From the NCBI GenBank assembly GCA_002633005.1, contig NMRA01000939.1:27356-91355 (forward strand): 64,000 nt of DNA, read 5' to 3'. Below the pieces are notes generated by a model, which was given only the letters and a program-made list of their open reading frames with translations, was not told where the DNA came from and did no database searches. A program made the position numbers and the translations under genes. Below are positions 22,501 to 62,369 of this stretch, one piece after another. Each line of letters starts with the position of its first letter. Position 1 is the stretch's first letter. Origin of the DNA: Phoronis australis (lineage: Eukaryota > Animalia > Phoronida).

Positions 22501-24163
22501 AATTTTCCTCCAAACTTTTGAGGATTGTCGAGGTTACAGAGCAGAGTTTGGTATCCTTTTATCTAGTGGGGGTAAGCGTCATTGATCTACTGCACACTTC
22601 CTTGTATAAGTCCTGGACCCGCCCTTGTTACCTGTATCTAATTGTGTCACTTGTGCTGTCAGTTACACAAAGCCCAAAGGCCAGCTACCTGACTACTCAG
22701 CCCCTGTTGTTCTGCGGACGGATAACACAACGATTGAAGATTTCTGTAACAAACTGCATCGCAGCCTTATCAAAGACTTTAAGCAGTAAGTCTTCCTGGC
22801 ATTATCTCTTTGATCTATAGAACTGTATACTATACTTATAAATTTATTTATTTGAGTGATTTCTTGGTGGTTCTGTTATGTCATAAATAATGACCAAAGG
22901 TCTAGTTAGCAAGGTAGACATTTCAGAGTGTCTGAAGAGTTCACAATAAGTGTACTGTACGGTACTTTGGCTTTCCTGTATACACAGGGAAAGTGTTTTA
23001 GTGACGGGTCACACAATTGAATGATTTCATGGCCGACATGCTTGGTGTCCCCAAGTCGGGGTCAAGCTATCTAATAAGTTTCAGCAAAGCCATTGAGTAA
23101 AAAACAAACATTGAAAAGAATGTAATCTATTTTGACAGTGCTTTGGTGTGGGGTTCATCTGTGAAACACCAGCCTCAGAAGGTGGGTAAAGACCATGTGC
23201 TGAATGATGAGGATGTGGTCCAGATTGTTAAGAGGTGAGTGTTGTTAGTTTAGAGTGTTTTTGGCTATACCCGTGGTGGTGAAGCAGTCCGGTGGTAGAA
23301 TCCATCAATACTTCGACCAAATCTTTGAATACAGACAGTGGACTCTACCAGTCCTGCCACCGGATTTAAAATCAGCTCGTGTGCTGCCTAAAACAGTGCG
23401 GGTCAGACCTTTAAATCCATTGCCCATGCTCCATAAACAAAGGTCAGATACTTTGCCAAAGAAGTACTGTGTAGTTGCTATATTCTTCACTTGAATATGT
23501 ACTTATGACCTAATTAGATGGTGGACATTAGCATGCATTCAGGCAGTGAAGTACTTGATGTGTAAATTGTATGTACAACTCACTATATTCTCCCGTTGCA
23601 AAGCTGCCTAGCTTCTTTAACTGGCTAATGGGGAAAGACCGATTCTGGGGGCAATTGAGTAGACGTCTCAAGATGTTCCAGGACCCTGGACCATGGATTG
23701 AAACAACTTGCACTCATTGTTGAAAGCTGAGAACCCTCCCTGAATAGTGTATGGTCAGCTTTAAGTTGTCTTAACTGATGGTCCAGGCTCCTGAAGTTGT
23801 TTATGGACCAATTCAATCATCGTAGGAATCAGTTCATGGCTGTTCCACAGTAGGAGCCAGGCAACTCTGTAACACCCGAAGGAAAATACAGCGAATATTC
23901 CTTGAAATTTTAATTTGTATATAACTGAACTAATTGTCTTCAGGTTGCCATTCTTGCACACTGTGACTATAGACTTTACTTTTAATTTGTACACTTTGCC
24001 TTCTCTTTCAATTTAAGGGCAAACTGTTATCATTTTCCACAAGTTGAAATTACAAGATGAGAGTTGCATCATGTTACGTAGGTTGAATCCTAAGAACATT
24101 GATTTCTCAACCATGTATTGGCAACAGTCTGCAATTATATTGTTCTTTCTTTGCAGAATTTAA
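10543..24163 (+). CDS. DRG1: Developmentally regulated GTP-binding protein 1 (OBG-family GTPase)
   Basis: Exons 10543-10581, 13885-14050, 14475-14605, 15719-15788, 16707-16876, 19564-19646, 20365-20467, 21638-21750, 22663-22785, 23139-23234, 24157-24163 (alternatively stop TGA 23236-23238 if the last intron is not spliced). DRG1-diagnostic [66 protein letters not shown], and C-terminal TGS domain. Confidence 0.95.
11213..11722 (+). mobile_element. MITE with CAGGGCTTGGAAT TIRs and 6-bp TSD (hAT-like)
   Basis: TIR cagggcttggaat/attccaagccctg; flanking duplication aagtat (11207-11212, 11723-11728); inverted sister copy at 29554-30030. Confidence 0.85.
12009..13196. mobile_element. Non-autonomous TIR element with 5-bp TSD (hAT-like)
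   Basis: Ends cagtgtttccc / gggaaaccctg; ataaa duplicated on both flanks; internal aaggagcatgg(t/c)ggtgaatg duplication and cgatcatttttactag tandem array. Confidence 0.65.
15301..15590. repeat. ~31-bp minisatellite in DRG1 intron
   Basis: Unit tacatgttatatggatgcatcaaagaatgca, about 9 copies. Confidence 0.9.
16222..16502. repeat. 25-bp minisatellite in DRG1 intron
   Basis: Unit ggacacctaacacttgaccatcagt, about 11 copies. Confidence 0.92.
17150..17900 (-). mobile_element. Heavily decayed CR1/L2-like LINE ORF2 3' remnant
   Basis: Frameshifted fragments [10 protein letters not shown] (like LGVxIDxxLS), [16 protein letters not shown] occur in the order expected for a CR1-clade ORF2 C-terminus; many stops. 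Confidence 0.35.
18030..18899 (+). mobile_element. DINE/Helentron-like non-autonomous element containing a 21-bp tandem repeat
   Basis: Starts after a T-run; gtttgcaacttgttatctcag x4 at 18231-18314; ends with short hairpin aatggtttaccatt followed by gcgctagt. Confidence 0.4.
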
Positions 24164-25986: not shown

Positions 25987-38575
<12,589 letters not shown>

Positions 38576-41600: not shown

Positions 41601-44600
41601 CGTAGACTAAACCTGGTGATTTGTCAAACTGTGTGGCTTCTGAAATTGAATTTCTCATTTTTTACCAGAATAAATACGATGAAAATTGACCAATATAGAT
41701 ATTAGGTTTGGTTCTCTGAATTACTGCAGTAGATAATTGGCCTGCAAGTCCTGATGTCAGACAAAAGGGCGTGTGAACTGGGTTGATAACTGGGTTAAGA
41801 CTCAATTTGAAAACGGAATCGGGTGGTTTTTGTAATTGTCTTGAGAAGAACAGACAGGTCGTTTTTACTTCAGACGAGGTCCATGAAAGTGCTTGTCACT
41901 GCAGATTAGCGTTAATCACCAACATGAACGCTGTGTTTACAGATTTGACCACTAGGGTTCACTAGTGTCTCCAGACAGTGCATCCTTTGTGTTTCCAAGT
42001 ACGACCAACTAATTGCCTGCTAACTACTTTCCTTATCACTAAAGGCAGGAAGAGATAACCTGCTAAAGGTGCTTAAGTCATTTCAATTTCACAATGCTGT
42101 AAGAGACTGAGCAGTGCAAATGCACTGCCAGCTTGATTAATTCAGTGCGTGGCCTTGAATAATAATCAAAGTTCACCATGCCTTCTCAGTTAGATTTGCT
42201 AGTGCTTAAAAGGTGAAAACTTACCACCTGGAATCAATTTGATTTGTGCACCAGTGTAACCATGGTTAGCATGTTAGCCGGGAAGACATCAGGGCCACCT
42301 GGTTTAGTGAAACCATGCACTTTCAATTCAAACAAAGGAAAGAAACTTCTACATTGAATGTGGTGATGTTGCACTGGAAGTGTTCGGTTTGTAGTACATA
42401 TAGCTTTTAATTTTATAAAACCTCTGATCAATGTCATTAGAGAAATGGTCGACGACATGTATGATTTATTCTCATAGCATAATCAAGTAATGATGAAAAT
42501 AAAACAAGGCCAAGGGTGTTGCTCTCTTATCACAAATATGCATGTCTGGAAGTTAGAGAATATTAATTACCTAAACAAGTCTTGTGCATGTTATACTTGG
42601 GTCTATGGCCATATGGATGTATTGCAATAAATCTCTAGAAAATTACACAGCTATTGAATCTCTAGTTTAGTTGCTATTTCCTTTCAAATTTGGTATTATA
42701 TTTTGATACCAAAATAATCTTAATTGTTAAGAGTATTTTAGCCACTTGTTTTCCAGTCGATTCAAAATTTTAAAAGTTGTTTGTGTCAGGTGTTCGATAT
42801 TGTTAAGAAACTAAACATTTTTTTGCGATTAAGATTCCTGCACTTGCTTATGAACCATATTGTGTCCAAGAATCGAACTTTTGATTTTGTCTCAGCTTGT
42901 TTCTTACTAAGATCAGAAGTGATTTCTAGATTTGTAAAGAACTGGCAGTTCATTATTTGTTGAGACCATGCTCGGCGTATAAAATGACCTGCCGCAACAA
43001 GTCAAATCGTGGAGTCTAATCTTGAGCAATAACTCTCAGTTATTCTAAGTCTGGAATTTGACCCCAGTTTGACCTAGGAATTGTTTGAGGCCGATTTCAT
43101 AATTGATAGGTTGTCTAAGTCAAAAGTTGTTTCTTGTAATGGAAGCCAGGTTATAATCACTTGTCTTTAAAAGTTTCATCCATCTTTATTCTAATTATGC
43201 TAAGAAAACTCCACGAGAATCCCATACTCTGCTTAAGGCCTGTCAAGTCTCTCCAGGCACATAGTTGTTATCAGATGTAGATATGGCATAACCACATGAA
43301 CACACAACATGTACAAGGAGCAATTATCTACCTAACTATTGGAATCATTGTTGATGTAATAATACCTCTACTTCACACAAAAAGCCGAACTTAGATTAGC
43401 ATTCTTGATTATACCATGGGTTGTCCAAAGTGGTTCTTGTTTATATCTATTGACAATGTATAAAATGTGTCAGTGAAATGGGTGTATTTCTAATTAAATA
43501 AGATACCTATCTCTGCCAACTAATTTTATCTTTCATCTATATTAATCATATTTATAAAATAAAATTCTGAAAAACCAGGGATGGCCAAGAGGTGCTATTC
43601 TTTATTTGCTCTTCAATGCTCCTCCTCTGTCATTTCCATAGCACCATCCCTTGTTTCGGTCATGCAGTAATGTTTGTTACTTTTCTCATGTTTAGGAGCA
43701 ACGGATTACGTAGGGTAGCTAACAAACTGCTGACCTTGGTCGTTGTTAGAGAACCCACAAGAGTTCTGCTGGGAATGAAGAAGAGAGGCTTTGGAGTGGG
43801 CAAGTGGAATGGGTTTGGCGGTAAAGTTCATGTTGGTGAAACAATCGTGGAGGCTGCGAAAAGGTATCCATGTTTGTTTTGACTTTATGTATAATGACCT
43901 GTGGACATGGGGTCTGGGTTCCCCCAGATGAAGTATACTTGAAGCTGCGTTTTGCTCTGTTGAGCTGGCTAAAAAATAAAAATTAAGACTTTTACTCAGT
44001 ATAGTAAATATACAGATGCTGAGGTTGCCCAATAGTGCAATATATCAAGTATAACACAGAGAAGTCAGGAACCCCAACTGGGAATTGAACCACAGATTGG
44101 ATTGCCAGTCTAGTGCTCTTACCATTGAGTTACTGAGGACCCGATATCTGTGCAATTACTGTTTACAGTAAGAGCACTAGACCGGCAATTTAGAGACCTG
44201 TGGTTGGATTCCCAGTTAGGTTCCTGACTTTTCTGTGTTTATTTAATACCTTTTACTCAAGATTAATCTCGTAATACTCTGTACTATGACAGGCTTTGCA
44301 TTTCCATTTCTCGCAATAACGTCAAAACCATCAGCGACTCTAGAAACTGTTTCAGAGTTTATTGGGGTTTACCAATCTTACAATTGTGAATTCAAAAGCG
44401 GTGTCTATCCGCATTTCCTGTGACTGGAGTTGGTAATCAAAATAGAATCCTTAGATCACAGAAAAGAATATTATGAGACCGATTTTATAAGGGTAAACGG
44501 TCAAATTCGATTTTCTTTTTTAGTCAGCTCAACAGAGTGAAATACAGTAAGTTGTTTGTATTTAAAATCGTCATTTCTTCGTTTTTTGTTTATGCCAATC

Positions 44601-45731
44601 CCCACATTTTATTTTATATCGCATAGTATGGTAATTCTGATGTTGATTGCTCAGGGAATTAAAAGAGGAAACTACGATTGAAGTTGATGATTTGTCTGAA
44701 GTTGGTCTGCTGATGTTTGAGTTTGTTGGCGAAGAGCAACTGATGGAAGTTCATGTTTTCACGACTGAAAAATACACAGGAACACCGACGGAAACGGAAG
44801 GTAAAACATTATTTGGACATGTAAGACAAAGAACCTCGCAGTTTGTCTTGACAGTTTATCTCCAGGCAACAGCTCAAAAAACACGTAACTGACTCTCGTA
44901 TAGTCACTTAGAATTGCTCGGCATTCCACTTTACATATGTCATAATGGCCTTGTCTGTACACGAACCAATTACACACAATAAAGACGTTTTGAAATTGTC
45001 TTTAAATTTATTAGTATCGGTTGTTTTACGCCTTGTGATTTAACGGTAAAAATTCTCCAGCTTAGGACAGTGAAAATTTTTAAATTTAAATATTAATTTT
45101 TTTTGCTCTAGGTTGGAGCCCGTATCATATTTTAGAAATAGTCAATATTGGCTGTCAAAAGTTCAAGAATCACGAGAGAGACGAATTTAGCATTGGCAAC
45201 GATTTTCAACAATTCTCTGATGATATAAAATGCAGAATCTGGTATTTGAGAAACATGTTAAATGCCAAATTACGCAATGTCCCAATCTTCAGAATCAAGA
45301 AAACTCAATTTTCAGTATCCAAATTTTAGAGACTGCCCAAACTAGAAAATTTTCACTCTACTCAATTGTATCGTCTCTCCTAAAATTTTTGTGTTTCTTT
45401 GTGACAAATCATTTCAAAACATACAAAAACCGTCTATCCATAGCTGCTGGAGTAAAAGATGAATTTAATTGTTCAGTTTTTAGAAAAGGGCATGACTTTA
45501 ATTCATTTACAGCATTATTTGTTTGTTATTGTAGAGATGCGCCCCCAATGGTTTGACCTTGCAAGCATCCCCTATGACTTGATGTGGAAAGATGATATCT
45601 TGTGGTATCCATTGATGTTCAAGGGAGCAAAATTTGCTGGTTATTTCAAATTTGAAGGACATGATAAAATGCTTGAACACAATTTGTGTGAAGTAGACAC
45701 CATTGAGGGACAGTTTGCTCATTTGAGGTGA
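38683..45731 (+). CDS. NUDT1: 8-oxo-dGTPase / oxidized purine nucleoside triphosphate hydrolase (MTH1, Nudix family)
   Basis: Exons 38683-38684 (AT, inferred), 43696-43863, 44655-44800, 45535-45731. Peptide KLLTLVVV...[39 protein letters not shown] (Nudix box)...[15 protein letters not shown]...EEMRPQWF...MWKDD..WYPL is diagnostic for MTH1. Confidence 0.93.
39756..40634. mobile_element. TTAA-flanked TIR element (Kolobok-like MITE family; other copies ~43938-44552, ~54248-54592, ~61445-61772)
   Basis: Terminal ctgcatttcgccctgtgtagctggctaaaaatgaaaat and its reverse complement ending gcagctttaa; shared internal attctatt.ccgttac...aaccctaaaattgc with 61530-61650. Confidence 0.6.
40053..40335 (+). 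pseudogene. Decayed BEL/Pao-type LTR retrotransposon gag N-terminal fragment
   Basis: [24 protein letters not shown] followed by frameshifted helical segment [18 protein letters not shown]...FIT*VQQ*. Confidence 0.4.
40644..41173. repeat. ~53-54-bp tandem repeat
   Basis: tacaaatgataaacctgcactgtcttttgatttagcccatgtgcttactgttt, about 10 copies. Confidence 0.95.
44052..44240. mobile_element. Head-to-head inverted tRNA-like SINE dimer
   Basis: Minus arm tcagtaactcaatggtaagagcactagactggcaat...ggttcaattcccagttggggttcctgac; plus arm cagtaagagcactagaccggcaat...ggttggattcccagttaggttcctgac. Confidence 0.75.
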
Positions 45732-47520: not shown

Positions 47521-48705
47521 TTGTCGCGTTTATGCTTTTCACTATCTGCTTCAGGGCGGCAAGGCTCCTATCATGCTATAGAAGTCCGTGATCATACCTA
47601 GTGGTTGTGCCAGGGCTTGTTCTGTTCAATCGTTGAACGTGGAACAGAAAATGCGAATGGTCTTAATCCATGAACTTGTTTATTGGAGACGAATCGCTTA
47701 AATTAACATAAAATTTAAATCAAATTTCGTGGATAAACTGCAACATAATCAAAAACAATTAGACCTACACTATCGATGATATTGATCCCTCACTTGGAAA
47801 ACCAGCTTTTTTCATTTTTTGTCAGATATTTTATAGACAGGCATCATCGCATTACTTTTTCAGCGAATCTCGAAGCTAGTTTGTGTGGACAGATGAGTAC
47901 CTTTAATGACAGTTAATATATTAAATGCACAGCAGACGACTGAATCTAGCTTGACGCCACTCCAGTTACGAATAATCAGATCAAGCGGAAGTCGCAACAA
48001 TCAAGTTACCAGCGGCTAGTTTTACTGTTTGAGGCTACTCTGGATTTTATTGCCAAGTCTATGTATTAAGCCAAATATTTACAAACTCTAAATTCAAACT
48101 GACCACAAAAACCATCGTATTTTCTGTAAGTAGAATTTGATTTTTGACCTTTTCCCAAACTGCTATTGATTGAGTCACGCGACCTCATCTTTTGGTGACA
48201 TTTGCAGAAAAGAAAGGTACTTAACATAACCAATTTTTTACTTGGTAAAAATATTCAAGATGAGATCTAAAAACGCTATTTCAGTCTACTAAAATTTCAT
48301 ATCGTTTTCGTTTCATAAAATTTTACGGACTTTTTTATTGTCCATCTTGTAAAAGTGGAAAATTTTTAAAATAAATCCTAACGGCGTTTTGGATGGAAAT
48401 CCGATTCCCCCATTTCCGAGACATGAATATTCAAAGTCAGCTTGATTTGGCCATTTTTGTAGTGTCCTACATCTTAAAGAATCAATGAACGCATTCGATC
48501 TGGGGTGTCATCACGTGCTATTAGAAACGCTAACTTTCCGTATTAAAAAAATCACGTATTTCACCCCAAAACGTGCCAAAACAATGTTTTTCAAAGATGG
48601 CGCTATACATTGGGCTTTTGCAATTCACATGTTTCAAAGTTGGCGGTATGAATATTCCTTATGTATAATATCGTGTATATTGTGTCAAAAAATTCCTGAC
48701 AAAAG

Positions 48706-51700
48706 CTACGCGTTTACAATTTCGTCCTCTTTCACACTGTTGTTGTTATCATTTTCGTCGAGATCAGGTATTTCGTTTTGTTCTTGTTGGTCTTTCTTCT
48801 GGTCCTCTGTTAACGTTTCCACGTGGTATCCAGTGACGCAACCCGGCTGTACATCAAGTCGACCACAAAAATGGCATGTCTAAAATACATAGGACAGAGG
48901 ATGTAAATAAATCAAGAATCTAAACCCGTGAAATTAAATATTAATATCAACAGTCAATTCGAAACCGGGTGCCTGGGCTTTTTGGCGATTTGAGTATAAA
49001 CTGAAATATTCCATACTGCGTCCGATCTCATCTCGAATATCACCCTTACTCGCCAAATGCGACTTCAACTTGCCAAAATTCCTAGATAGTCTCCACCACA
49101 GTTTCAGAACGGCGAAGGTCATAACCATTTCTGGTGAAATCGCTTGGCAGGCTGTCGGATGCGCATTTCGTGACCGCTTTTGCGACTATCTTCGCAGTAT
49201 GTTTTTCTTGTATCAGATGTTTCATCTTGTAATTAATTTATGGCATTTATAAGTCAACCTTGCTCTCTCCCGCTATCATTGAAAACGGGCTTCAGATATC
49301 ACGGTAGGCAGATATGAACGACATCAATGTAGACTTCTCTTATTACGAAAATGGCGCTTGGTTGTAAAGTTATTGTACTTGAACGCTTAAATATTGATGT
49401 TTGTGTCGACATGAAATTTTAAAATTTATGCTCAAGTCAGAAGACCCACCGGCGGCCAGCTTTGAAGGCGGACACTAAATTCTGGTTGATTTTTTTTACC
49501 TCCACAGTAAGTGTTGTGCTTAAAAGACGGTACCATGCATTTACATCGTCAGTAAGTTCATTCGATGCCAAGTTCGTTCATTTCCGTGTGTCGTTCATTT
49601 GATGCCAAGTTCGTTCATTTCCGTGTGTCGATATCTTGTACATTACTACTAATTATGTGTACATTGTAACGCTTACGGAAAATGAAATGTGACATTAATG
49701 TGCGTGATCCCTCAGTATGCTTAATATTAGCCCTGTACGTCATGATTTTGACGACATCTAATAAAGAATGTGTTTAAAAAACGATAAGATGTCTTGGCAT
49801 TTGCTAGATATTCACAAAAACAAGATGATTTAGTTTTCGCCTAACACTACGTGGTGCACAATGTACATCTGTTTGATAACCGGACGTGTCGAGCGTTTCA
49901 AATTTTCTGTCAATTACATTAATTTGATTTGAGGCTTTGTCACCGGTTTCCTACTTTATAGTCTGCCAGAACAAAGATTGTGAGAGTGATATTGCCGTGA
50001 CATTTCCAAGTCGAATAGAACTTACCCCCTGTAGCAAAACCGTATGGACGGAGGAAGGAAACATGAAAAGGAAAGAATAATACATGACTAGTTATGTTTT
50101 GACACACTGTTAGTTTCAGATCATCATGTTCGGAGCTCTACGGGGTCGGCGTGATATATTTCCACAAAAATTAATGAACGGTAGTAGACCCACCTTCCGT
50201 CAAAGATTAAGTTTTGTCTTAAGACAAATTAAAACTTGTCCTCTGCTCAGATTAGTTTCCTGGTTTAGGATGTACGTTACTACTTGAGATCAGCGTACTT
50301 TGCTAGTTCTTTCCTAAAGATGCAGAAATACTTCCTCATCCGAGCAAGGAACAAGCTGAGATCAATTTTTAAGTAATCTAAATCAAAAAGTGTTATTTGA
50401 CACTCGCAGGCTGAGTAGAGTTCAATAACCCCAGGACCTTGTTAAAGTCTTTCTAAAATCACGTGCTGTTATATGAAATACAGGCCATATCTTACTTTAT
50501 TTCGCGAAGTTTTGCCTTTTAGCGAGGTCCTCGTTACTGAACTATAACGGGGGGATTTGGGAACTTCAAAATGCAACTGCTTCGCTTCACATCGATGTTC
50601 TAAGCCCTCTACCGATACTTAACTAAAATAATTAAATTATACCGATAAAGCTAATCCGCCGTGGTAGGCTCATAGCATGCTCTAATCTCTGAAAAAGTAG
50701 ACCTTTTGCTATCAAAAAAACGTGAGGACTAAAAAAACGGGGTACCACCTTCAGGCTTGTGAACTGTGCGTCAGCGCCTTTTTAGTGGACTTTTGTCTCG
50801 TTTTCTCGGACTTTTTACCCTCTTCGCCAAATGATCGGTCGTGTTCTTGGCGGTTGGAATCTCGTAAATTCAGTAACATTAGTTTATTCGATTCAAAACC
50901 TCGCAGTACGAAAGGAAACGACTTATTTTTGTAACTTGCGAATAAATTGTTTGTTAAAAAAATATTTTTTGTATAAAATTTCAAAATACTCACTCCCTAT
51001 CGTCGTGATTTCCAGATGCGAAGACATGGAAAAGAAATGAAACGTGTTGAAAATAATACATGCAAGAAACACCAAATACAAGACATTATTAGAAATGGAA
51101 ACATGTTTACAATATCAGATTTGAATTCCATTTTTGACAAGACCGCAACCCTGTTCCTGTTGAATATATATCTGATTGCTTGTTTGACAACATTGTTTTA
51201 ACCAGATATCGCTCTATTTGAGCATATTTCGTTCATAGATAGGTTCATAGATAGTTATCACCAGTTCACTTGTTACTCTCTCAATCGTTTTTGGCTCGGC
51301 ATTTTCTCTGGGTTACTAATGAAAATTATACCTAAAGGATGTGTTGGATTAGTTTTGTTTTGTAAAGTAGTTGCTTTTCACTGGTCACTGTTCGATCCGT
51401 TGGGCCCCGTTTTACCAAAGGTAGTTAGATGTGCCTTGAGACGTTCGTATCATGAAATTTTATGATATATTGGCGTGATTTATGAAGGCCTGTTTCAACT
51501 CAAATGCGAAGTATGATCACGTTTACATCATTAGTAACGTTTCGCTCTGACTCGGTAAAAATACAGCTTCTCTATGTTGCAAACACGTGCTTACCACTGT
51601 CTGAGTTTCACGGGACAAACAAAACCTTTGACAATACAGTCTCCAGGAAAGTATTGAGATCTGAACAATTTCACTGATTACAAAAATCCTATCCAAGGTG

Positions 51701-54700
51701 AAACACGTTTTATATTTTTCTCTTTGCATTAAGAATTTTCCAATGCTGATTTGTGTAAACGTCACATTGCCTGGTAACGATTTTGTCTCGCACAGACATC
51801 ACTTTCTCCAAAGTTTCCAATTGGATCGTGGATCTGCTGATTTGTACAGGAAGAGTTTTAGCACCTTCTGGACACTTGATACTGTTCAATTTCAACGACA
51901 ATAAAATTATAAGACTGAATATACTCACAAATAACTCCAACTGTTCGTTGCCATGGAAATATGAAAAATAAGAAAATACTTTTACAACTTAAGGGCACTG
52001 ATTTCAGCATTTTCATCGATTTAAGTAGTGAACAACAGTCATACAATACAATGTTATTGATTGTACATCGAAGGCATTGCTTACACGTACGTAAATACAT
52101 AAGTGAACAATGAAAAGTGTCGTGCGTTTAACCAATTCTGTATAACCGAAAATTTGCTCCCGAAGTACAGCCAAATTCATAAGTAAAAACAGTCATATTA
52201 TTAATTTTTAACACTTTTGCTAACATCTCATCTTGGCGTTTTGAGAAAACTTCGCGTTTGTTCGGCAACAATTTTAACCCTTTCTGATTTGAAAATTTGT
52301 GTTCTTCGATTGGGTTTGCTTGTAAGAAAGTCTCGAAAACGAACGTTTTGCAGGTTTTGATTAATAATCTTAATAAATGACATTACTCTTCATCAGAGTG
52401 AACTATCACATAATCTCGCCGTAGCTCTAAAATTAAAACAACTTACCGTCTGTTTGAGATTGGCACGTCAAGAATGGCATGAAACAAAAATATACAAAAC
52501 AATGGATAAGAGATAAACGAAACTACTATTATTTCAGTTTAAAGGGCTTCGGCGCTAATTGGTTAGTTCCCCGCAGTTTTTTATCGTCTTATTTACTGTT
52601 CGAAAGGCAACAATACTATTAATCGAGTTAACTATTGAATAGGGTTGAGGCCTCGTTATATTGCTTGCATGATTGTCTTACACCCGAGTCGTTGACCCAT
52701 TGTTGTTGCTTGTCCAAGGAAATGTGTGGTAGTACATGTGCTTATGGTAAATTGATTCTAGCTGGTAAAGATAATACTTACGGGCTGTTGTCGGCAACAG
52801 TCGAAGAGTAATTATGAAAAAAAAAACAAATAATTAGTGTTGGCGTTCAGGGGGTAGAAATGATTCCATGGCGGCCTCGCCTCTAACGTCCAACTGTCAT
52901 CATCTAAATTCCAATCCCGAACCAGGAGACACTAAGTCGGCAGTAGAAATCCCAGACCCGCCTCCCTAAACATGCACGCACTGAAAATGCTCAATACAGG
53001 GTGACCAGATTTAAATCCCAGGGGCCAAACTACAATCCGGGGATGAGTCTGGTTCCCCGGACAGGAGTTTCTTGCTCAGAACTCAGTAGAATTTGGTCAC
53101 CTGATATGGACATTTTAAATGCGTGTTTGGAGTGGCGCGGGTGTGGGATTCCATGTACCGTCCTGTCCGTTTGATATCGCTAGTCGGGACAGGGGTTTAA
53201 GGCGAAGTTAGAGTCGCGGCCATGGAACCGTTTCCTGTTTTTTTTATCAGTCGATACATTGAAAGAAATAAAGATAATGTCTCAGGAGCAAAGGTCTCGT
53301 GAAATTGTATTTCATGTAATTGAATTGAACCGTAAAATATCAAGGCTTGGTTGCATAAAAGTTGTACCCTGGATTGCAAAAATGACGCCGTATTATCACG
53401 CATCTCGTCATTGTTGAACAATGCGCTTGATGCCCTGCAATAATCCACCAATGGATAAGTTTTGAAGTTTTATACAAGCTAGACACGTTTTTAAACACCA
53501 CAGAGTACACAGGTTCGAGACAGAGTCCCGGATGACTCGATATTTTCCTTCCCACAATTCAGAGGACTTCAGAAACTTTAACGATACTCTTTATGATTCA
53601 TTTTAGTCAAAATTTCATAAAACGCATTTTAACACAAGTGAGTTCAGTCGAAAATTAAGCCCAAACACTGTTCATTTAATCAACTCCAAATATTTTCAAA
53701 TTGAATTTAGGTTGGTTTTCATTTTGGTGGTGTACCACCACCTAAAATGACCGCCGTTTTGAATGACAGCTGACTCGAGCATTATGGGTACTCATTCATT
53801 TGCCGCGGCCATATGTAATGATTTTCGGCGGAAACCCCGCCCACATTTAAAAATATAAAAATTAATGATAAAATAAGGAAAATTCAAACATGGTTGAAAG
53901 TTACAAAATGTTCACATTTCATTGATATCTTTGGACTGACTAAATTCATCCTGTGTTCTGAATTGGTGAATGTAAACGAAGCAGTATCAGATTATTTAAT
54001 TTAAAGGCGGTGATTAACAGCTGTCTGTGAAATCTGCAATTTCCAAACAGTGATTCATGGGGATAGAGGGGAGTGTATGAGTAAAAAGCGTGAATATTTA
54101 TTTAAACATTGGATTGTAATACACAGCCACTAATACTAGAATAAATTGGGTTTTGCCCAGAGAGGTACTTCGAGGCTTAGACCCACTTGAATTAAACGCA
54201 CTGGAGAAATTTAAAATGATTACATTCTGCAATGAAAGGTAATACAATTAAAACTGCATTCCACCTCTGTTAAGTTGCCAATGTTGAATTCTAAATCGAA
54301 GCTCTCTGAGCTCGCCACGCTCACCCGATCTTGAATCGTGGTAGAATGAGCAGGTAAGTCAAGTCACAGACAATGCGTAAATACGTCATTTTCGAATCAG
54401 TAGTTATAGGGTTGGCCAACTGCAATGAACTCATAAGCGTTTCCTTGAGTCTCTGATGGTCTCGAGGTTTTCTTTGATAACAGAAAGGGAATCAAATCAC
54501 GGTAAAGAATATTATCGGGTCGATTTTATAAACAGTATGGGCCTTATTCGATTTTTTCATTTTAGCCTCCAAAACAGGGCGAAATGCAGCTCGGTAATTC
54601 CCCGTGTATTTGTCACGAGTAAAATACTCACGCCTTGGTGCCAGACGCAGGCTCGTGGTCGATTCTTTGTGGGGTTGAAATATTTTTTACATCGCAAACA

Positions 54701-57700
54701 GTGCCTCAGCTTAGGGTCATAGCGGGGGCTATTGCAAAAATTCCCTCTGGGAGAAGACTCTGCAGAACTAGCCGATTCACTTCCACTGGCGTCGGAAATG
54801 GAAGTTATGTCGTTGAAAAGGGATTCTGTAAAAGTGAACGATTGTTTCATGTCAGTGTCTAACAGAATGGTCAAATACGTTGTGTGTAATGACTCAGGGG
54901 GTCTAACATGTCGCCTAATCACATTCTAGGAGGAGGCAGTGTGGCTTAGTGTGATAAGTGCCCGAGGTCGTGGGTTCGAGTCCCACTGGGTCACACTGTT
55001 AAATCCTTGACATGCCCAGCCTTTAATATGGGGGGGGCTCGAATTCCTAACGTTGTGGACCTTTTTGGTAACAAAATAGCCGGCGGACTAAAAAAAGGGG
55101 CGCACTTCTGTGATTTGCGCGTTTTGTGCTTGTTTAGTGGACTTTTGTCTCATTTTCTCGGACTTTTTGTTTCTAGCTCCTCAGTTCGGTTTTAACTATA
55201 TATTAATAAAGCATAAAAATGGCTCCAGGTGATTAGTGCAATGGGCCCACGTGCGCGCCCTGCGCACGTTTGGTAAAACGTGTATCAGACCCCTGCATTT
55301 ATTTTTTTATTATAATCACAATCTACAAAAGTCATAAAATGTGATGGCCAACACGGTAACATTTTTGATGGTATCCGGCTTAAGGGGACAGGGCCCCTCG
55401 ATCATTCCTAACTCCGCTTAATGCATAGTCACACATTTTTCTTTGAAGTACACAAATGGTATATGTCATCAGGCACAAGTTGTGACGCGCTAAAATCGTG
55501 ACAGTTTGGGAGGCGATTGATGACCTAAATTGCCATAGTGCACCATTTGTTTGAATTTCATCCTGCCAGGCATAAAACAAGCAGGTAATGATACGTTTTG
55601 AGCTTCACTACGGTCTTGAAACTCTGCAAAGTTCACATCTTTAATTACTTCACCTGATAAACGCAAAATAAAAACAAAGCAAGATTCCGCATTAGAATTC
55701 ATACATTTAGCGACACAATATCCACCACTCGGAACGTGTACGGACAGTGTCGCCATAAAAAAACAAATGGTGTACGTGTAACATACAGTTAGATGCGTAC
55801 CTTTGCTTAGTTCAAACTTCTGCTTGTGTTGTCTGATTTGTTCTCGCTCTTCATGCTGGAGTCGCACGTGCTCATTCAATATATCGTGCCTGTGTTGTTC
55901 CACGGTGGCGTTTAATTTTCTCAAGTTCTTCACAACCTGAGATGGAGAAAGAGCGATGAGTCTTCTATATGTCATACACTCAAATTAAATACATGGTTTT
56001 GTATGTACGATTGCAGTTTGGGTAAGGTTATTTATTTTCCACGCGGAGTAAGGATTTTTTTCTGTATGAATGGTCACAAATTAACCGCACCAACCAGTTG
56101 TCATGTCGCATACTATTCAATGTGTTCTTAAAGGAGCACTCAGATCACTTTTGGTTATTGAAACGTTTTCACTGCTACGGAGATTTTACCAGCAGAAAAC
56201 TTTCCATTACTTCTCGGCTATTTTTGTGAAAAGAAAAAAACGTTAGTTACGCTTTTGCAGTGAGATTTTCGGTACCAAATTGAAAATGGCCACCAACTAG
56301 CTGGACTGAGGGACTGAGATCCATCAACCCACACGTAGAGATCTAAACGGTTTCTAATGACGGGGATTTAAATGTTCTTACCTCTCCTCTAAGTTTCCTT
56401 TCTAAACATCTTTTATTTTTCTGATGTGTAAAGAGATCGCGGTACAGCGTTCTATAACCACAAGCATCACAGCTGACGTGCCGAAAGTCGCACTCATTTT
56501 CGTGTTGCGTTGCCAGATGTCGCTTCGGGGTCACTTTGCATCCAAGACACTCGTTGGCACACCGGACAGGCGCATTGGGACACTCCTTTTTAACGTGGTT
56601 GTCCATATCTCTCATTAAAATTGTTTTGTCGCACTTGTAAGCGCACCGGAGTTCAATGTTCGATAATTTTGTAGTTAACTCATCCGGCGGTTTTTCTGGT
56701 GTCTCGTTCAGTGGTGTTGAGCACGTGGGACACTCGCGAGAATACTTTGACTGGAGCCTTTTCTTTATACATGGAAAACAAAACACGTGGGGACACGCGT
56801 TTGTGACTGGATTTACGAAGACTTTATTGCACAGGTCGCATAATAANAAATCGTCATAGTCCACCATTTGTGTGAATTTCATCCTGCCAGGCATAAAACA
56901 AGCAGGTAATGATACGTTTTAAGCTTCACCAGCGTCTTGAAACTCTGCAAAGTTCAGGGACCCGTTCCAACAAAACTGTCTTAGCTAAGACAAATCTTAA
57001 ATTTTAGTAGATTTTAAAATAAAAGTTAAATTTGTCTCAAAACCAAATCAAGAGAGAAATCTTAAGTTTGACTTAAGTGTATGAGCCAAGCTTTGTCTTA
57101 ATTTTGTCTAACTTTCCAAATGTGGAAGTTTCAAAGTTTGGAAGTTAAGACAAATCTTAGACTTAAGTCAAAAATGAACTTAAGTCAGTTTCTTGGAACA
57201 GGCGATCTTTAATTTTTTCCCATGATAAACGCAAAATAAAAACAAAGCAAGATTCCGCATTAGAATTCATACATTTAGCGACACGATATCCACCACTCAG
57301 GACGTGTACGGACAGTGTCGCCATAAAAAAAAACAAATGGTGTACGTGTAACATACAGTTAGATGCGTACCTTTGCTTAGTTCAAACTTCTGTTTGTGTT
57401 GCCTGATTTTTTCTCGCTCTTCATGCTGGAGTCGCACGTGCTCATTCAATATATCGTGCCTGTGTTGTTCCACGGTGGCGTTTAATTTTCTCAAGTTCTT
57501 CACAACCTGAGATGGAGAAAGAGCGATGAGTCTTCTATATGTCATACACTCAAATTAAATGCATGGTTTTGTATGTATGATTCCAGTTTGGGTAGGGTTA
57601 TTTATTTTCCACGCGGAGTAAGGATTTTTTTCTGTATGAATGGTCACAAATTAACCGCACCAACCAGTTGTCATGTCGCATACTATTCAATGTGTTCTTA

Positions 57701-58467
57701 AAGGAGCACTCAGATCGCTTTTGGTTATTGAAATGTTTTCACTGCTACGGAGATTTTACCAGCAGAAAACTTTCCATTATTTCTCAGCTATTTTTGTGAA
57801 AAGAAAAAAACGTTAGTTACGCTTTTGCAGTGAGATTTTCGGTACCAAATTGAAAATGGCCACCAACTGGCTGGACTTAGGGAAGATCCATCAACCCACA
57901 CGTAACCCAAACGGTTTCCAATGACGGGGATTTAAATGTTCTTACCTCTCCTCTAAGTTTCCTTTCTAAACATCTTTTATTTTTCTGATGTGTAAAGAGA
58001 TCGCGGTACAGCGTTCTATAACCACAAGCATCACAGCTGACGTGCCGAAAGTCGCACTCATTTTCGTGTTGCGTTGCCAGATGTCGCTTCGGGGTCACTT
58101 TGCATCCAAGACACTCGTTGGCACACCGGACAGGCGCATTGGGACACTCCTTTTTAACGTGGTTGTCCATATCTCTCATTAAAATTGTTTTGTCGCACTT
58201 GTAAGCGCACCGGAGTTCAATGTTCGATAATTTTGTCATTAGCTCATCCGGCGGTTTTTCTGGTGTCTCGTTCAGTGGTGTTGAGCACGTGGGACACTCC
58301 CGAGAATACTTTGACTGGAGCCTTTTCTTTATACATGGAAAACAAAACACGTGAGGACACGCGTTTGTGACTGGATTTACGAAGACTTTATTGCACAGGT
58401 CGCATAATAAATCCGGCTCCACATCGCCAACAATTCTACTGGGGTCCAGTCCTGGCATGATGAACAT
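48706..58467 (-). CDS. RING finger / TRAF-type zinc finger / coiled-coil protein with C-terminal CHORD-like Cys/His domain (RNF151/RNF41/PDZRN3-like N-terminus; putative E3 ligase)
   Basis: Exons 57946-58467 (ATG 58467 or 58458; RING CDLC...CPHVFCFPC...CPTC and TRAF-type fingers), 57371-57506 (coiled coil), 54632-54858 (Ser-rich, CLRC...ACVWHQG), microexons 52782-52784, 52447-52449, 51929-51940, 50994-50996, 50026-50028, last exon 48706-48879 (TCHFCGRLDVQPGCVTGYH, acidic tail, TAG). Splice phases are consistent. Confidence 0.8.
50026..50028 (-). CDS. 3-nt microexon (Gly)
   Basis: ttctttccttttcatgtttccttcctccgtccatacggttttgctacag|GGG|gtaagt. Confidence 0.75.
50994..50996 (-). CDS. 3-nt microexon (Gly)
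   Basis: tttcatttcttttccatgtcttcgcatctggaaatcacgacgatag|GGA|gtgagt. Confidence 0.7.
51929..51940 (-). CDS. 12-nt microexon (LELF)
   Basis: ttttcttatttttcatatttccatggcaacgaacag|TTGGAGTTATTT|gtgagt. Confidence 0.78.
52447..52449 (-). CDS. 3-nt microexon (Thr)
   Basis: ttttgtatatttttgtttcatgccattcttgacgtgccaatctcaaacag|ACG|gtaagt. Confidence 0.75.
52782..52784 (-). CDS. 3-nt microexon (Pro)
   Basis: ctaattatttg-(T-run)-cataattactcttcgactgttgccgacaacag|CCC|gtaagt; branch-like ctaat upstream. Confidence 0.78.
52948..53150. mobile_element. Small nested inverted-repeat element(s)
   Basis: Inner TIR cagggtgaccagattt / aatttggtcacctg (52997-53103) within outer arms aatcccagacccgcc...aaacatgca / tgcgtgtttgg...gcgggtgtgggatt. 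Confidence 0.55.
54928..55012 (+). mobile_element. tRNA-derived SINE
   Basis: ggaggaggcagtgtggcttagtg...ggtcgtgggttcgagtccc; same family as 4075-4192. Confidence 0.7.
55527..58408. repeat. Tandem near-identical duplication (copy A 55527-56846, copy B 56848-58408) joined at a single N; duplicates RING-gene exons 1 (partial) and 2
   Basis: Exon copies 56382-56846 and 55801-55936 versus 57946-58408 and 57371-57506; scattered SNPs; N at 56847 exactly at the junction. Confidence 0.9.
56957..57204. mobile_element. MITE present only in copy B of the duplication
   Basis: Copy A reads aagttcacatcttt; copy B has ~248 bp inserted with inverted ends cccgttccaacaaaactgtcttag / cttaagtcagtttcttggaacagg. 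Confidence 0.8.
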
Positions 58468-61400
58468 GTGTCGGCAACGTTGTTAACCGTATGTCCTGCG
58501 GCATAAGATAATAGTCAGTGAGCAAATTTAATTATAGTGCACAAAAGACCAGTAAAATATTATAAAATAATTGCCTTGCAGTTTATTTCTCAGCGTACGT
58601 GATGTAATGATATACGAATTAAGTAATGAAAACTGTTCAAAAATGGATCCGACAATGCCTACTTATCTGGGCAACTAAGTGCAATGCATTAGCACTAAAG
58701 GCCCTTTCCGGTCTGAGCGGAGCGTCGACGCAAACAGTGCAGTTTACTGGACCGTTCATGCTGGCTTCGATCGAAGTAAACGGTAGGTGATGCAGTCGTC
58801 ATCGAAGTTATCGCAAGGTAGCGCTGCATGCTAAGATTTTTTTCAACGTGACAATTTGGGAACATTTACATGTGCTAATTGACGTTAAACTTATTTTTAA
58901 ATCGATTGGTTATTATTAAAGCAAGATATAAGGAGCTATTAGTGACGGCACTACTAGTATCTCACATTTGCTGGTTCGTTTACCATTTAACTTCTTAGGA
59001 AACATTTAGTGGTTCTGAGGGAAACACTACATTCCACCGTGGAAGTTTCCTCCTTCGCCAGTTTTAAATTGCAATATTTCGTCTTCCTGCCAAAGCGTTA
59101 GTAACGCTTGAAGATTTAGCAAACTTTGCGTGAAGTTGAAAAAATTTGCTCCAATCAAATTTTCGTCATGAGTATCACTTGGTATTGTTCGGTTTCAAGA
59201 CCTGAGTTGCCCGGTAGTTTTTAACATCTTTACGATGGTTAAAATCGGATTCAAGGCCTCTTTAAGAAAAAAGTTTGAATTCAGGTCTTTATTATTCACA
59301 GACACCACGAAGTTAAATGCACCAACTGTTCTATTACAGGATCAAAAATTCGAGTTGTAAACATGTTCATTTAGTGCATTTTAATAACGACACATACATT
59401 AGCCAGCTGAAGTAATGGCGTGTTGTTAGTCATTATTCATATGATCAAGTGGTGATACAGAACATTGAGCCAGCAATTCATTAACTAAGTTCAATTTGTT
59501 TTAAAGTGTATTCACGTGATCGAGTAATTAGGGATAATGTCACATTGATTACTTAGCAAATTTGCATTTTATTGACGTTTTCGTTAATTAAAATGACGAA
59601 AATTGGTCGAATTTGTTACGACTACAGCGCAGTTCAAATAAAGACGTTATCTTATCCGTGTTTACACAGTGTTTACACGCAACGGAGCGCCGCAGGATAC
59701 TGTGTAAACAACAACATAGCATTTTGCAATCGATACTCAATTTATAGTTTGATTTGCCACTTCACCAGCGTTCCGAAAGTGTCCCAAATTCAAAACCACA
59801 GTTCTTTACGAATTCGTTACTACATCTTAGGATCGAAACGCATAAAGTGTTTTTGGCCGTCAAACATTTCATTTAGTCAGCGATAAAAGTTGTGCTACTA
59901 CAAGCTCAGCATTCAATAATCACATCTTTTTTCTTTCTCTCTGTTGTCCCTATCTTTGCTCCACATCATGAAAGGTGAACCTCAGTTATGTTTGTCACTT
60001 GTACGCAGCATCCGACAGTAAAATCTTGTTTTCTGGATGCTCATCCATTTCACACAGCAGTCTTACAGTTTCCAAAGAAAACACGTGCGAACGTCAAATG
60101 ATGTAAATCGATTTTGTTATCTGCGATTAAAAACTTGACTGAACTGAAGTTTTGTAATATATGCAGACAATCGTAAAGATGTGTATTGTGTCAGTTTTAA
60201 AAATAAAATCTTTCAGCACCTCAATTCTTCAAGTCGAGTAGGGCCTAAAAGTGTAAAAATGCCTCAGAGAGCCCGCTAGTTCCTCAGATGTGTAGTGGCC
60301 GGCGTAATCGGATTCACGTTACCACTGTCCCGAACATTAAGTTAGTACAACCATTAGAACTAATTTGAAAAGTCTCGGTAACTTTTTATCGTGACCTAGT
60401 TTTCAGACTTCATCATACCTAGGACCAGAGTATATTACTCTCTGATCATACCTTGGTTATCTCTGGCTTTGGTTTGCTGATTTGTTGTCAACTGGATGCG
60501 TCTTGGTATCTAGTCTCCCCGACTGTTGTCTTTGCTACAACCTACCTGTTGCACATTGAAAATGGTCCGCTGTAGGCCTATGCATGATTTTTTCTAAATC
60601 TAGCCTCAACGTTTATCTCTCATCACCGTATAAACAGTGTGAGTGATGGTCTGTCCAGGTTTGTCGTGCGACTCCAAAACAATTCTTCACGGGCCACTAG
60701 TTATGAATAGATACCAGCGATTACCTAAAACAGATCCGTAAACTTCTAGACGATATCCAGTCATCAACCGTCAGCCAGTTCCGCTGAACAGAAGACTATA
60801 CTTCAGTTTATCATATGCTGTCGTCTGGCACTGCGCTCCTCTAAATCTTCGACGGCTTAATCCGTATAATCCCTCTCGTTCTGACACGGGATTTCATGAT
60901 TGTGAAGCTTACGATGACATTTTTATAACTACATGGGTACCCGTCGAGTGGAGTACAATACGAAATACCCCTTTAAACAGGTTCAAGTGCCTTTCTGAGT
61001 TGGGGAAAGCTTTGTTCACTGCTTTGCTGTAATGGAGCATTTGTGTGTTTATCTAGGAGGAATAGGGTAGTGATAAAAGAAGTATTGGTTAAATAACAAC
61101 CTTTACTCACAATATATGTATTCAGTCAGATCCCGAATGTGTTAGAAGTGAGCTAATGTCAACAGATTACGCGGGCTGTATAGAAACCAGCCCATGATTA
61201 GGCCTGCTTGATTAGTCCATAAAGGCTTGTTATTATAAGTTTGTCAAAAGGCTATAGGGTTATTAACGACGGTATCTTGAGCAAACAAGAAGCTCCCAAC
61301 TCACCAATCGATGCTCCATAATCCTCTATGACTGAAGGATGTTGTGTTACCCAAGAAACACGACTGTTTTCCAATATTTTGTCTAAACACTTTCGTTTAC

Positions 61401-62369
61401 TCAACATGGACTGAAGAGTGGGAAACAGTTGATCGAGTGGTCGTTTAAAGTTTCATATCGCCTTGTTAGCTGGCTAAAAATGAAAATAGAATTAGTTCTT
61501 TTATTCTTTAAAATCGATGCCACAAAAAGATTCTATTCCCGTTACCAAGAAGAACATCGAAACCAGGAGCGACCTTAAAAACCCTTTAGGATTTATTGGG
61601 GTCTGCTAACCCTAAAATTGCGCATTCGAAGATGGCGCATGTAGGCATTGTCTTTGACTTAGCAAATGAAATGGAATCCTATCACGCTAAAGTATGGTAT
61701 GAAGCCGAATCATGAGAAGTCTAATTAGATTTTCGGTGTAAGCAAGCTAAACAGGGCGAAATGCATCTTTAAATCATAGGCGGATTTAGGGGGGGCAGGA
61801 GGCCCGCCCCCCCCCCCCTTGGCTGGCGCAAAAAAATAAAACAGGAAGAGCGTAGGGAAATGTTGAGTTTATTAATTTGCCCCGGTAATCAAAATTATAC
61901 GGATGAAAAAAGATTTGAATGTGTGCAGTTTTAGTGTTTGGGGTGGGGGCTCAGATCCAATTTCAAGTGTCAAATTCGGAACACGGCGCATTCGTAACGG
62001 AACTATGGCTAAGTATAAGCTTTCCCGCGATATCCCAGGCGACCGGCAGTGGCGCTGGGCACTACGACTCCGTTTCCGTCGTCTGCTCCACTGTGCAATG
62101 GAGATTTTTTACTTCATTTTTTAAAGACANGATCTATTATAACCCCCCGAAGGTGAAAATTTGGTGATTACCACCCGGGGCCCCCTCCCAACCCGTGGGA
62201 AATATGAAATTTTAGATGACTTCTCACTGCAATTATTGCATTACAGTTAATTGAAGCTTCCTGTGAAAATGGAGAGTATTTGTGAAATTAGGAAAGGTGG
62301 AAATTATTTGGTTACAGACGCCGGTACAAACCGCTTAGTCAAAGTAAAATTATTTGTATCATGAATATT

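Follow-up and report, generated by a model that had tools for sequence, protein, structure and literature searches.

Five consecutive microexons within a conserved CHORD-like zinc domain of a Phoronis australis RING/TRAF-zinc-finger gene

How does a spliceosome assemble coding sequence from exons of one codon each? The handling of exons that are too small to accommodate both splice-site complexes is an open problem, and most work on it concerns single neural cassettes that need SRRM3/4. The problem is posed in serial form by a gene on the minus strand of a 64,000-nucleotide stretch of the genome of the phoronid Phoronis australis (contig NMRA01000939.1, positions 27,356 to 91,355; this whole stretch is called the window, and its own coordinates are used below). 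Between two exons that each encode half of a predicted zinc domain lie five microexons of 3, 3, 12, 3 and 3 nt, and the full chain is spliced together in RNA. The reading that we favor, with moderate confidence, is that these microexons are real, are spliced in series and probably included by default, that they encode the loop connecting a His of the domain to its next Cys pair, and that this layout is likely to come from a common ancestor of corals and bilaterians.

The upstream flanking exon, which finishes with codons for His-Gln-Gly, extends to 54632 and is followed by a GTGAGT donor; the last exon starts at 48879. Five cassettes of the form YAG-exon-GTRAGT occupy the minus strand in between: CCC (Pro; 52782..52784), ACG (Thr; 52447..52449), a 12-nt exon encoding Leu-Glu-Leu-Phe (51929..51940), GGA (Gly; 50994..50996) and GGG (Gly; 50026..50028). 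A first-pass annotation of the window had proposed five phase-0 cassettes at these positions, and both the sequence and RNA reads carrying the full ordered insert bear it out. Intron lengths along the chain are 1847, 332, 506, 932, 965 and 1146 nt, so that the 0.3-1 kb given in the same annotation is right for the inner four (332-965 nt) and too short for the flanking two (1847 and 1146 nt). All junctions are in phase 0, and the frame that results from joining the chain to three upstream coding exons is open to a stop at 48706, specifying 346 amino acids; the microexons contribute 24 of 1041 coding bases. They are microexons in the defined sense of internal exons that are no longer than 27 nt, bounded by canonical splice sites and present in spliced RNA.

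Only five GTRAGT sites exist on the minus strand of the 5.7 kb between the donor at 54631 and 48880, and all five are microexon donors. In 1000 dinucleotide shuffles, in-frame cassettes with a pyrimidine window number 0.045 on average and 1 at maximum (none of the shuffles has at least two), compared with the five observed; the opposite strand of the same region has none. A chance origin of the cassettes is rejected by this test. A single hidden 24-nt exon is likewise rejected, since the longest contiguous match of the spliced 24-mer to the window is only 14 nt. The 24-mer has exactly one pure GT-AG parse in the 5.7-kb region (24 parses if GC donors are allowed).

The five acceptors share an unusual layout. 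Their pyrimidine tracts are set back (pyrimidine fraction 0.75-0.85 at -40 to -21 versus 0.41-0.65 at -20 to -4), and the nearest upstream AG is located between -40 and beyond -100, leaving AG-free zones. The sequence TTYCAT is found upstream of all five, at -46 to -18 (three times at -35), where it ends the set-back tract; its background is 137 of the window's 3527 YAG sites and 23 of 121 pyrimidine-rich YAG sites, and it is not found at four ordinary acceptors tested, nor in exact form at the coral-clade acceptor described below. (This motif was picked after inspection and is therefore a lead only.) TTYCAT resembles a 3' splice site in which G has been replaced, and might attract 3' site factors as a decoy. 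TGC, which the first-pass annotation had taken as a sign of SRRM3/4 (eMIC)-type microexons, is indeed present in three of the five linkers, but this is background level: 1237 of the 3527 YAG sites (35%) have it as well (P=0.24).

RNA data of the same species comprise three raw-read runs (X1-X3, about 18-19% of each being used) and a contig set (X4); reads were placed on 48600-54890 with a likeness of 97%. Four X2 reads with three different start points join 48880 to 54632 and hold between these ends an insert whose 23 letters, together with one absorbed base, are the five microexons in order. (A read artefact was considered as the source of the insert and rejected.) One X1 read has the same joint, its insert letters not being listed. 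Two X3 reads join 48880 to 50993 with one letter between, and so run from the central intron through GGA and GGG into the last exon; they represent a partly spliced molecule and place GGA at its genomic site. The central intron (50997..51928), which these reads retain, is a candidate for a last-removed or detained intron that is often still in RNA: sense-strand depth is 1.2-6.8 over 51120-51749 versus 2.6-12.1 on the last exon. Over 52800-54479 the depth is zero at 97% likeness, and low rather than zero at 90% likeness. No joint representing a direct skip or a sub-combination is listed in the runs; reporting needs three reads, so minor forms are possible. Interspersed repeats at 50700-50820, 54930-55300, 57000-57200 and 61600-62050 draw many RNA reads that originate elsewhere, and do so on both strands.

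The segment that the chain supplies belongs to an end domain that is predicted to bind zinc through eight ligands and that probably acts like a CHORD, though it is not a member of that family. A profile of seven complete end domains, compared with solved structures, matches RAR1 (2xcm_E, E 5.1e-5) and CHORDC1 (2yrt_A, E 0.0025); the seven share six invariant Cys and two invariant His, and the order of ligands is that of CHORD (C,C,C,H,C,C,C,H), as is the N-x-x-x-x-C-x-aromatic-H-x-G-P core. On the other hand, CxxC takes the place of adjacent CC, the first spacing is shorter, and the domain is single and fused to RING/TRAF fingers, unlike the tandem pair of RAR1 and CHORDC1. None of eight complete homologues matches Pfam CHORD (PF04968) or BTK at E up to 10, or a MATH or PDZ family, and the best ESM Atlas match (0.88) is to a cluster with 19% CHORD members, which is a lead only. 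In the available part of the published RAR1 account, the stretch His181-Cys196 contacts Hsp90 and ADP by way of the invariant His188 (PMC2935968). The microexons align to this stretch, but their F-G-G loop has no equivalent of His188. The loop may be a partner-binding surface that corresponds in position to the Hsp90-contacting loop of RAR1, with a partner that, the invariant His being absent, is probably other than Hsp90. The rest of the protein, with its N-terminal RING and TRAF zinc fingers, resembles ligases such as TRAF6 and LNX1/2, from which it differs in its CHORD-like C-terminal module; the labels PDZRN3-like, NRDP1-like and RNF151-like that homologues bear in databases reflect only the N-terminal half. 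The host can be thought of as an uncharacterised RING/TRAF-zinc-finger protein and putative ubiquitin ligase, an activity predicted from its domains.

Orthologues reveal the same boundaries in another way. Word-index protein searches with the window exons gave no homologues, but HMMER did, recovering 18 proteins with an E of 1e-30 or lower. The named members are from nemerteans, molluscs, an annelid, a brachiopod, a hemichordate, echinoderms, amphioxus, an acoel and Montipora corals; a vertebrate, insect or nematode name does not occur in the 30 clusters consulted, a sample that does not establish that these groups lack the gene. In the comparison set of 199 proteins, 68 (27 clusters) carry the first half of the domain, 25 of them being complete and 43 breaking off. 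The spacer has the same length as here in 21 of the 25 complete sequences (21 of 68 overall; 6 of 27 clusters, namely amphioxus, the brachiopod, the Montipora-containing one and three more). Among the other complete sequences one is longer by one residue, two are shorter by one and one is shorter by four; the extra residue (in P0027) is possibly an extra microexon. HxG is joined directly to CxxC in none of the 68. Almost all of the broken sequences (41 of 43) end VS, VR, VN or AS, as expected of a donor (GTRAG or GCAAG) read as codons. They break straight after HxG in 32 cases, after residue 1 in three (Tubulanus, Solemya and isoform X1 of Haliotis rubra), after residue 2 in one (isoform X2 of H. 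rubra), after residue 6 in two (Strongylocentrotus) and after residue 7 in three (the acoel cluster), never at residues 3-5; two are unclassified. (These counts include by-eye correction of three rows: P0172, and P0023 and P0169, which were assigned to residue 6.) The break positions match the boundaries of the chain: the two Haliotis rubra models stop on either side of microexon 2, the sea-urchin models stop right after microexon 3, and no break falls inside the 12-nt exon. Models at NCBI are broken inside the domain in 11 of 14 named genera, mostly by reading into donors at these boundaries, and are complete in Lingula, Branchiostoma and Symsagittifera, whose microexon layout is not visible. 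Much of what the first-pass annotation expected has accordingly been found: the 8-residue P-x-xxxF-G-G segment in orthologues, a CHORD-like fold (by the profile match), a putative E3-type host (by its Pfam RING and TRAF zinc fingers) and gene models that miss the chain. Insert-free transcripts and orthologues devoid of the segment, which had been named beforehand as outcomes that would speak against it, did not turn up.

A relative that bears on the age of the chain comes from a metagenome. A first scan yielded no related stretch among 87, and a second, made with a coral-clade alignment, yielded ten loci. In one of them (L005) a GTAAGT donor follows the codons for HKG, and a lone CAG-CCG-GTAAGT cassette 1230 nt downstream (L005:3871-3873) corresponds to microexon 1, the Pro codon, complete with set-back pyrimidine tract, long AG-free zone and a TGC at -12; a cassette of this type arises in 4 of 2000 shuffles. 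The same Pro codon is used by L001, a contiguous relative. Placement of L005 in the coral clade is inferred from protein identity (63% to the Montipora cluster versus 26-35% to named bilaterian proteins), and a quick tree with four rows left out puts the window gene outside that clade. No second cassette is seen in L005 before its contig ends, 1.07 kb past the Pro cassette. Coral-clade copies have no upstream coding introns, yet the intron after HxG is kept. One coral-clade lineage has GCAAGT in place of a GT donor behind the HxG codons, making a GC-AG intron (L006:942, L007:1137). In L009 (1-4871) and L008 (1-3022) the orthologue lies just downstream of an intron-free 783-residue frame, which we take to be aconitase-like, and of a divergent intron-free frame, an arrangement that may represent merged transcripts or a compact, intron-poor locus. 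Proteins ending HxG-VS had also been considered as products of intron-retaining transcripts; this was dropped for records that have no species name, L002-L007 showing such ends as genomic open reading frames.

The remainder of the host gene is also on the minus strand. An upstream non-coding exon (60452..60824, far end approximate; X4 contigs cover 60487-60824) is joined across 58494-60451 in seven X1 reads, three X2 reads and one X4 contig. The first coding exon (57946..58494, ATG at 58458), whose acceptor is set by this joint, encodes the RING finger and TRAF-type zinc fingers (Pfam zf-C3HC4 and zf-TRAF, above curated cut-offs). The second (57371..57506), delimited by its AG/GT ends and open frame, its junctions not being among the listed RNA joints, encodes a predicted long helix (coiled coil). 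The third (54632..54825; sequence, RNA depth and joint) specifies a Ser-rich linker and the first half of the CHORD-like domain (C-x2-C...C-W-H-Q-G), and the last (48706..48879; RNA depth, X4 contig 48600-48880) its second half (C-x2-C...C-x2-G-x-H), an acidic tail and the stop. The model of the amphioxus orthologue is organized similarly, with RING/TRAF fingers, a 50-residue helix (159-208), a disordered linker and a weakly predicted end domain, and has TRAF6 as a Foldseek match (E 8.7e-12). A second copy of coding exons 1-2 (55637..56846; blastn, 1212 nt at 97.0%) adjoins the first in tandem across a single N at 56847 (55637-58410 in all); it is likely to be an uncollapsed haplotype and possibly a real duplication. 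Coding exons 2 and 3 may have an optional exon between them at 55544-55653 (minus strand), where an exon-like open stretch follows the acceptor TTATCAG; the listed RNA joints include none for it. Neighbouring genes, assigned by eye from fragments of open reading frames, are presumably a ubiquitin-conjugating domain (1549-1773), a DRG-type GTPase (13843-23234), COP9 signalosome subunit 1 (31809-36564) and a NUDT1-like hydrolase (43571-45731).

How might a chain of this kind be spliced? Because the two splice sites of a 3-nt exon lie too close together to be recognized at the same time, each such exon would first be added to a neighbouring long exon; the tiny exons would thus join a long neighbour one by one and never be defined on their own. 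The last exon would grow in the upstream direction while the upstream exon probably acquires its Pro codon early, so that the ends are assembled first and the central intron is removed last. At each step the set-back pyrimidine tract would give 3' site factors room, with the first AG downstream being used. The proposed order agrees with downstream-first splicing of most SRRM4 microexons (PMC10250204), and the late central intron with the greater number of retained introns around plant microexons (PMC8831610), as far as the available parts of these sources go. Splicing left unfinished would deprive the protein of four of its eight predicted zinc ligands. As to origin, the eMIC reportedly arose in bilaterian ancestors (bioRxiv 2021.02.24.432780, seen in part) and microexon 1 exists in a coral-clade genome; the chain therefore probably predates eMIC and SRRM3/4 and did not need them when it arose, a later capture by eMIC in bilaterians being possible. 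A more far-reaching version, which we put forward only tentatively, is that the complete 3-3-12-3-3 chain existed in the cnidarian-bilaterian ancestor, was spliced in an ordered, eMIC-independent way, and has been kept across phyla because its slow assembly serves to gate or tune the binding loop of an overlooked ubiquitin ligase. If this is true, the gene is a living example of a microexon architecture that eMIC later took over, and hints that arrays of codon-sized exons are drawn to zinc-domain loops more than once.

Several observations weigh against the favored reading of an ancient chain included by default. In five of the metagenome loci (L002-L004, L006 and L007) the first donor is present, but the 0.3-2.3 kb examined contain no Pro cassette; the sequence of L009 stops right at the boundary, and only microexon 1 has been seen in DNA outside the window. 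In L008 and L010 the segment is contiguous, beside the intron-free aconitase frame, although these may be RNA assemblies or intron-free copies. A protein of the acoel cluster (P0007 cluster), encoded on a long contig, has the first seven residues contiguous and is one residue shorter, so that the acoel lineage may have lost the first introns of the chain. P0185 lacks four residues, P0184 lacks one and P0027 has one extra. The reads are few: letters are listed for only four, all of them from X2 (about 19% of that run), and by simple arithmetic four such reads are compatible with about half of the transcripts being other forms. Their source tissue is unstated, so neural-only inclusion remains compatible with them, and the order of splicing rests on two reads and a low intron depth. 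Modeling of the domain is poor (the isolated-domain AlphaFold model, at a pLDDT, or predicted local distance difference test, of 58 and with no VIA-align match at Z>=2, is uninformative), and the loop region is also weak in the full-length model of the amphioxus orthologue.

Some of the same data can be accommodated differently. If removal of the central intron is slow enough to hold back or truncate the protein, the chain would serve as a splicing gate, with regulation by intron retention yielding a ligase that has or lacks a complete zinc domain. This is compatible with the favored reading, and as the principal explanation we consider it unlikely. In its support, all three raw-read runs give the central intron a sense-strand depth that amounts to a large fraction of that on the exons, with bins of 52800-54479 at zero; an X4 contig covers 51478-51631 inside that intron; and the two RefSeq isoforms of Haliotis rubra run into the intron that follows residue 1 or 2 and stop there. 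But introns kept in RNA may simply mark ordinary intermediates in the nucleus (how the libraries were selected is unspecified), and many of the read-through proteins are genomic open reading frames (L002-L007), not transcripts. A very improbable account is that different lineages acquired the chain separately, or that it is left over, neutrally, from intron gains that are hard to lose and does nothing except supply residues. Part or all of it may be lost in the acoel cluster, L008 and L010, yet the same boundaries occur in a nemertean, molluscs, an urchin and the coral-clade locus, and coral-clade copies that have no upstream coding introns retain an intron at this place.

Control of the cassettes by eMIC and SRRM3/4, with combinatorial skipping (32 in-frame forms) tuning or switching off the domain, was the view of the first-pass annotation. 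Set-back tracts, long AG-free zones and strong donors do fit the architecture described for such exons, for which UGC is reported not to be strictly needed (bioRxiv 2024.09.17.613571, available part); all pieces are in frame, and a later capture in bilaterians is conceivable. What argues against it is that TGC is not enriched, that microexon 1 occurs in a coral-clade genome, outside the group in which eMIC reportedly originated, and that eMIC programmes are described, in the part of the source available, as almost completely rewired between phyla (bioRxiv 2021.02.24.432780), that the spacer here is constant in 21 of 25 complete sequences, and that full skipping is seen in none of 68. Dependence on SRRM3/4 is thus not supported. 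Skipping is unproven: all four reads with listed letters include every microexon, and the single sequence that fits a skip is P0185, a transcript-type coral record whose four missing residues would correspond to the 12-nt exon on a P-F allele of the coral cluster, but which is one assembly product with a gap that can be placed in two ways. We regard control by eMIC as quite improbable, and return to a chain included by default.

How does this chain compare with known ones? No publication on it was found in a search that covered subscription literature little, and supplements such as amphioxus microexon tables may list some of its exons; the comparisons that follow go as far as the available parts of the sources. 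Neural microexons of the SRRM3/4 (eMIC) class are likewise 3-27 nt long, with strong donors, set-back tract, AG-free zone and downstream-first splicing (bioRxiv 2024.09.17.613571; PMC10250204), but they are tissue-switched, poorly conserved between phyla, their target sets having been rewired almost entirely between flies and mammals, and confined to bilaterians (bioRxiv 2021.02.24.432780); here there are five in series, TGC is at background and a coral-clade counterpart exists (L005), so that the donor, tract and AG-free-zone features of the class are found and its confinement to bilaterians is not. Clusters of two or three microexons in one gene region are known from RPS24 (3, 18 and 22 bp; PMC12207440), from Dctn2 (9+6 nt) and the PTPRD meA pair (PMC7821500), and from rice (5+12 nt; PMC8831610). 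These have at most one 3-nt member, and the animal cases are alternatively spliced, in contrast to four single codons within one loop.

Longer arrays are closer in form. Schistosome micro-exon genes (MEGs) also string together very short exons, most of them divisible by three in length, across introns of 0.1-5 kb, and are likewise hard to annotate, but they have 10-20 exons, mostly of 15 bp, that specify variable, secreted, parasite-specific proteins with few conserved motifs (PMC10526429). Of the five microexons in the phoronid gene four consist of a single codon, the protein has its RING finger at the start, and the microexons supply a fixed spacer to a conserved, predicted intracellular zinc domain with relatives across phyla. 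The NACHT-ankyrin genes of Tuber melanosporum come nearest in having serial single-codon exons within a protein-interaction domain, there dozens of 3-bp mini-exons (Iotti et al. 2012 as cited in PMC9815663 and PMC10197012). That is a fungal gene superfamily in which alternative splicing is described as diversifying recognition (PMC9815663, PMC10197012), whereas this is an animal gene with conserved residues and, so far, mainly full inclusion: at low depth, four of four lettered reads are full-length, and 21 of 25 complete orthologue sequences have one spacer length, with one that fits a skip. Known arrays are thus described as diversifying and lineage-specific; what is new is an RNA-supported, probably ancient serial chain in a conserved domain. 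The gene offers a direct test of eMIC-free microexon splicing and of whether set-back 3' site architecture came first. In practical terms, this is an animal gene family whose C-terminal domain is truncated in the NCBI models of 11 of 14 named genera, and gene models ending HxG-VS are a simple sign by which chains of this kind can be found.

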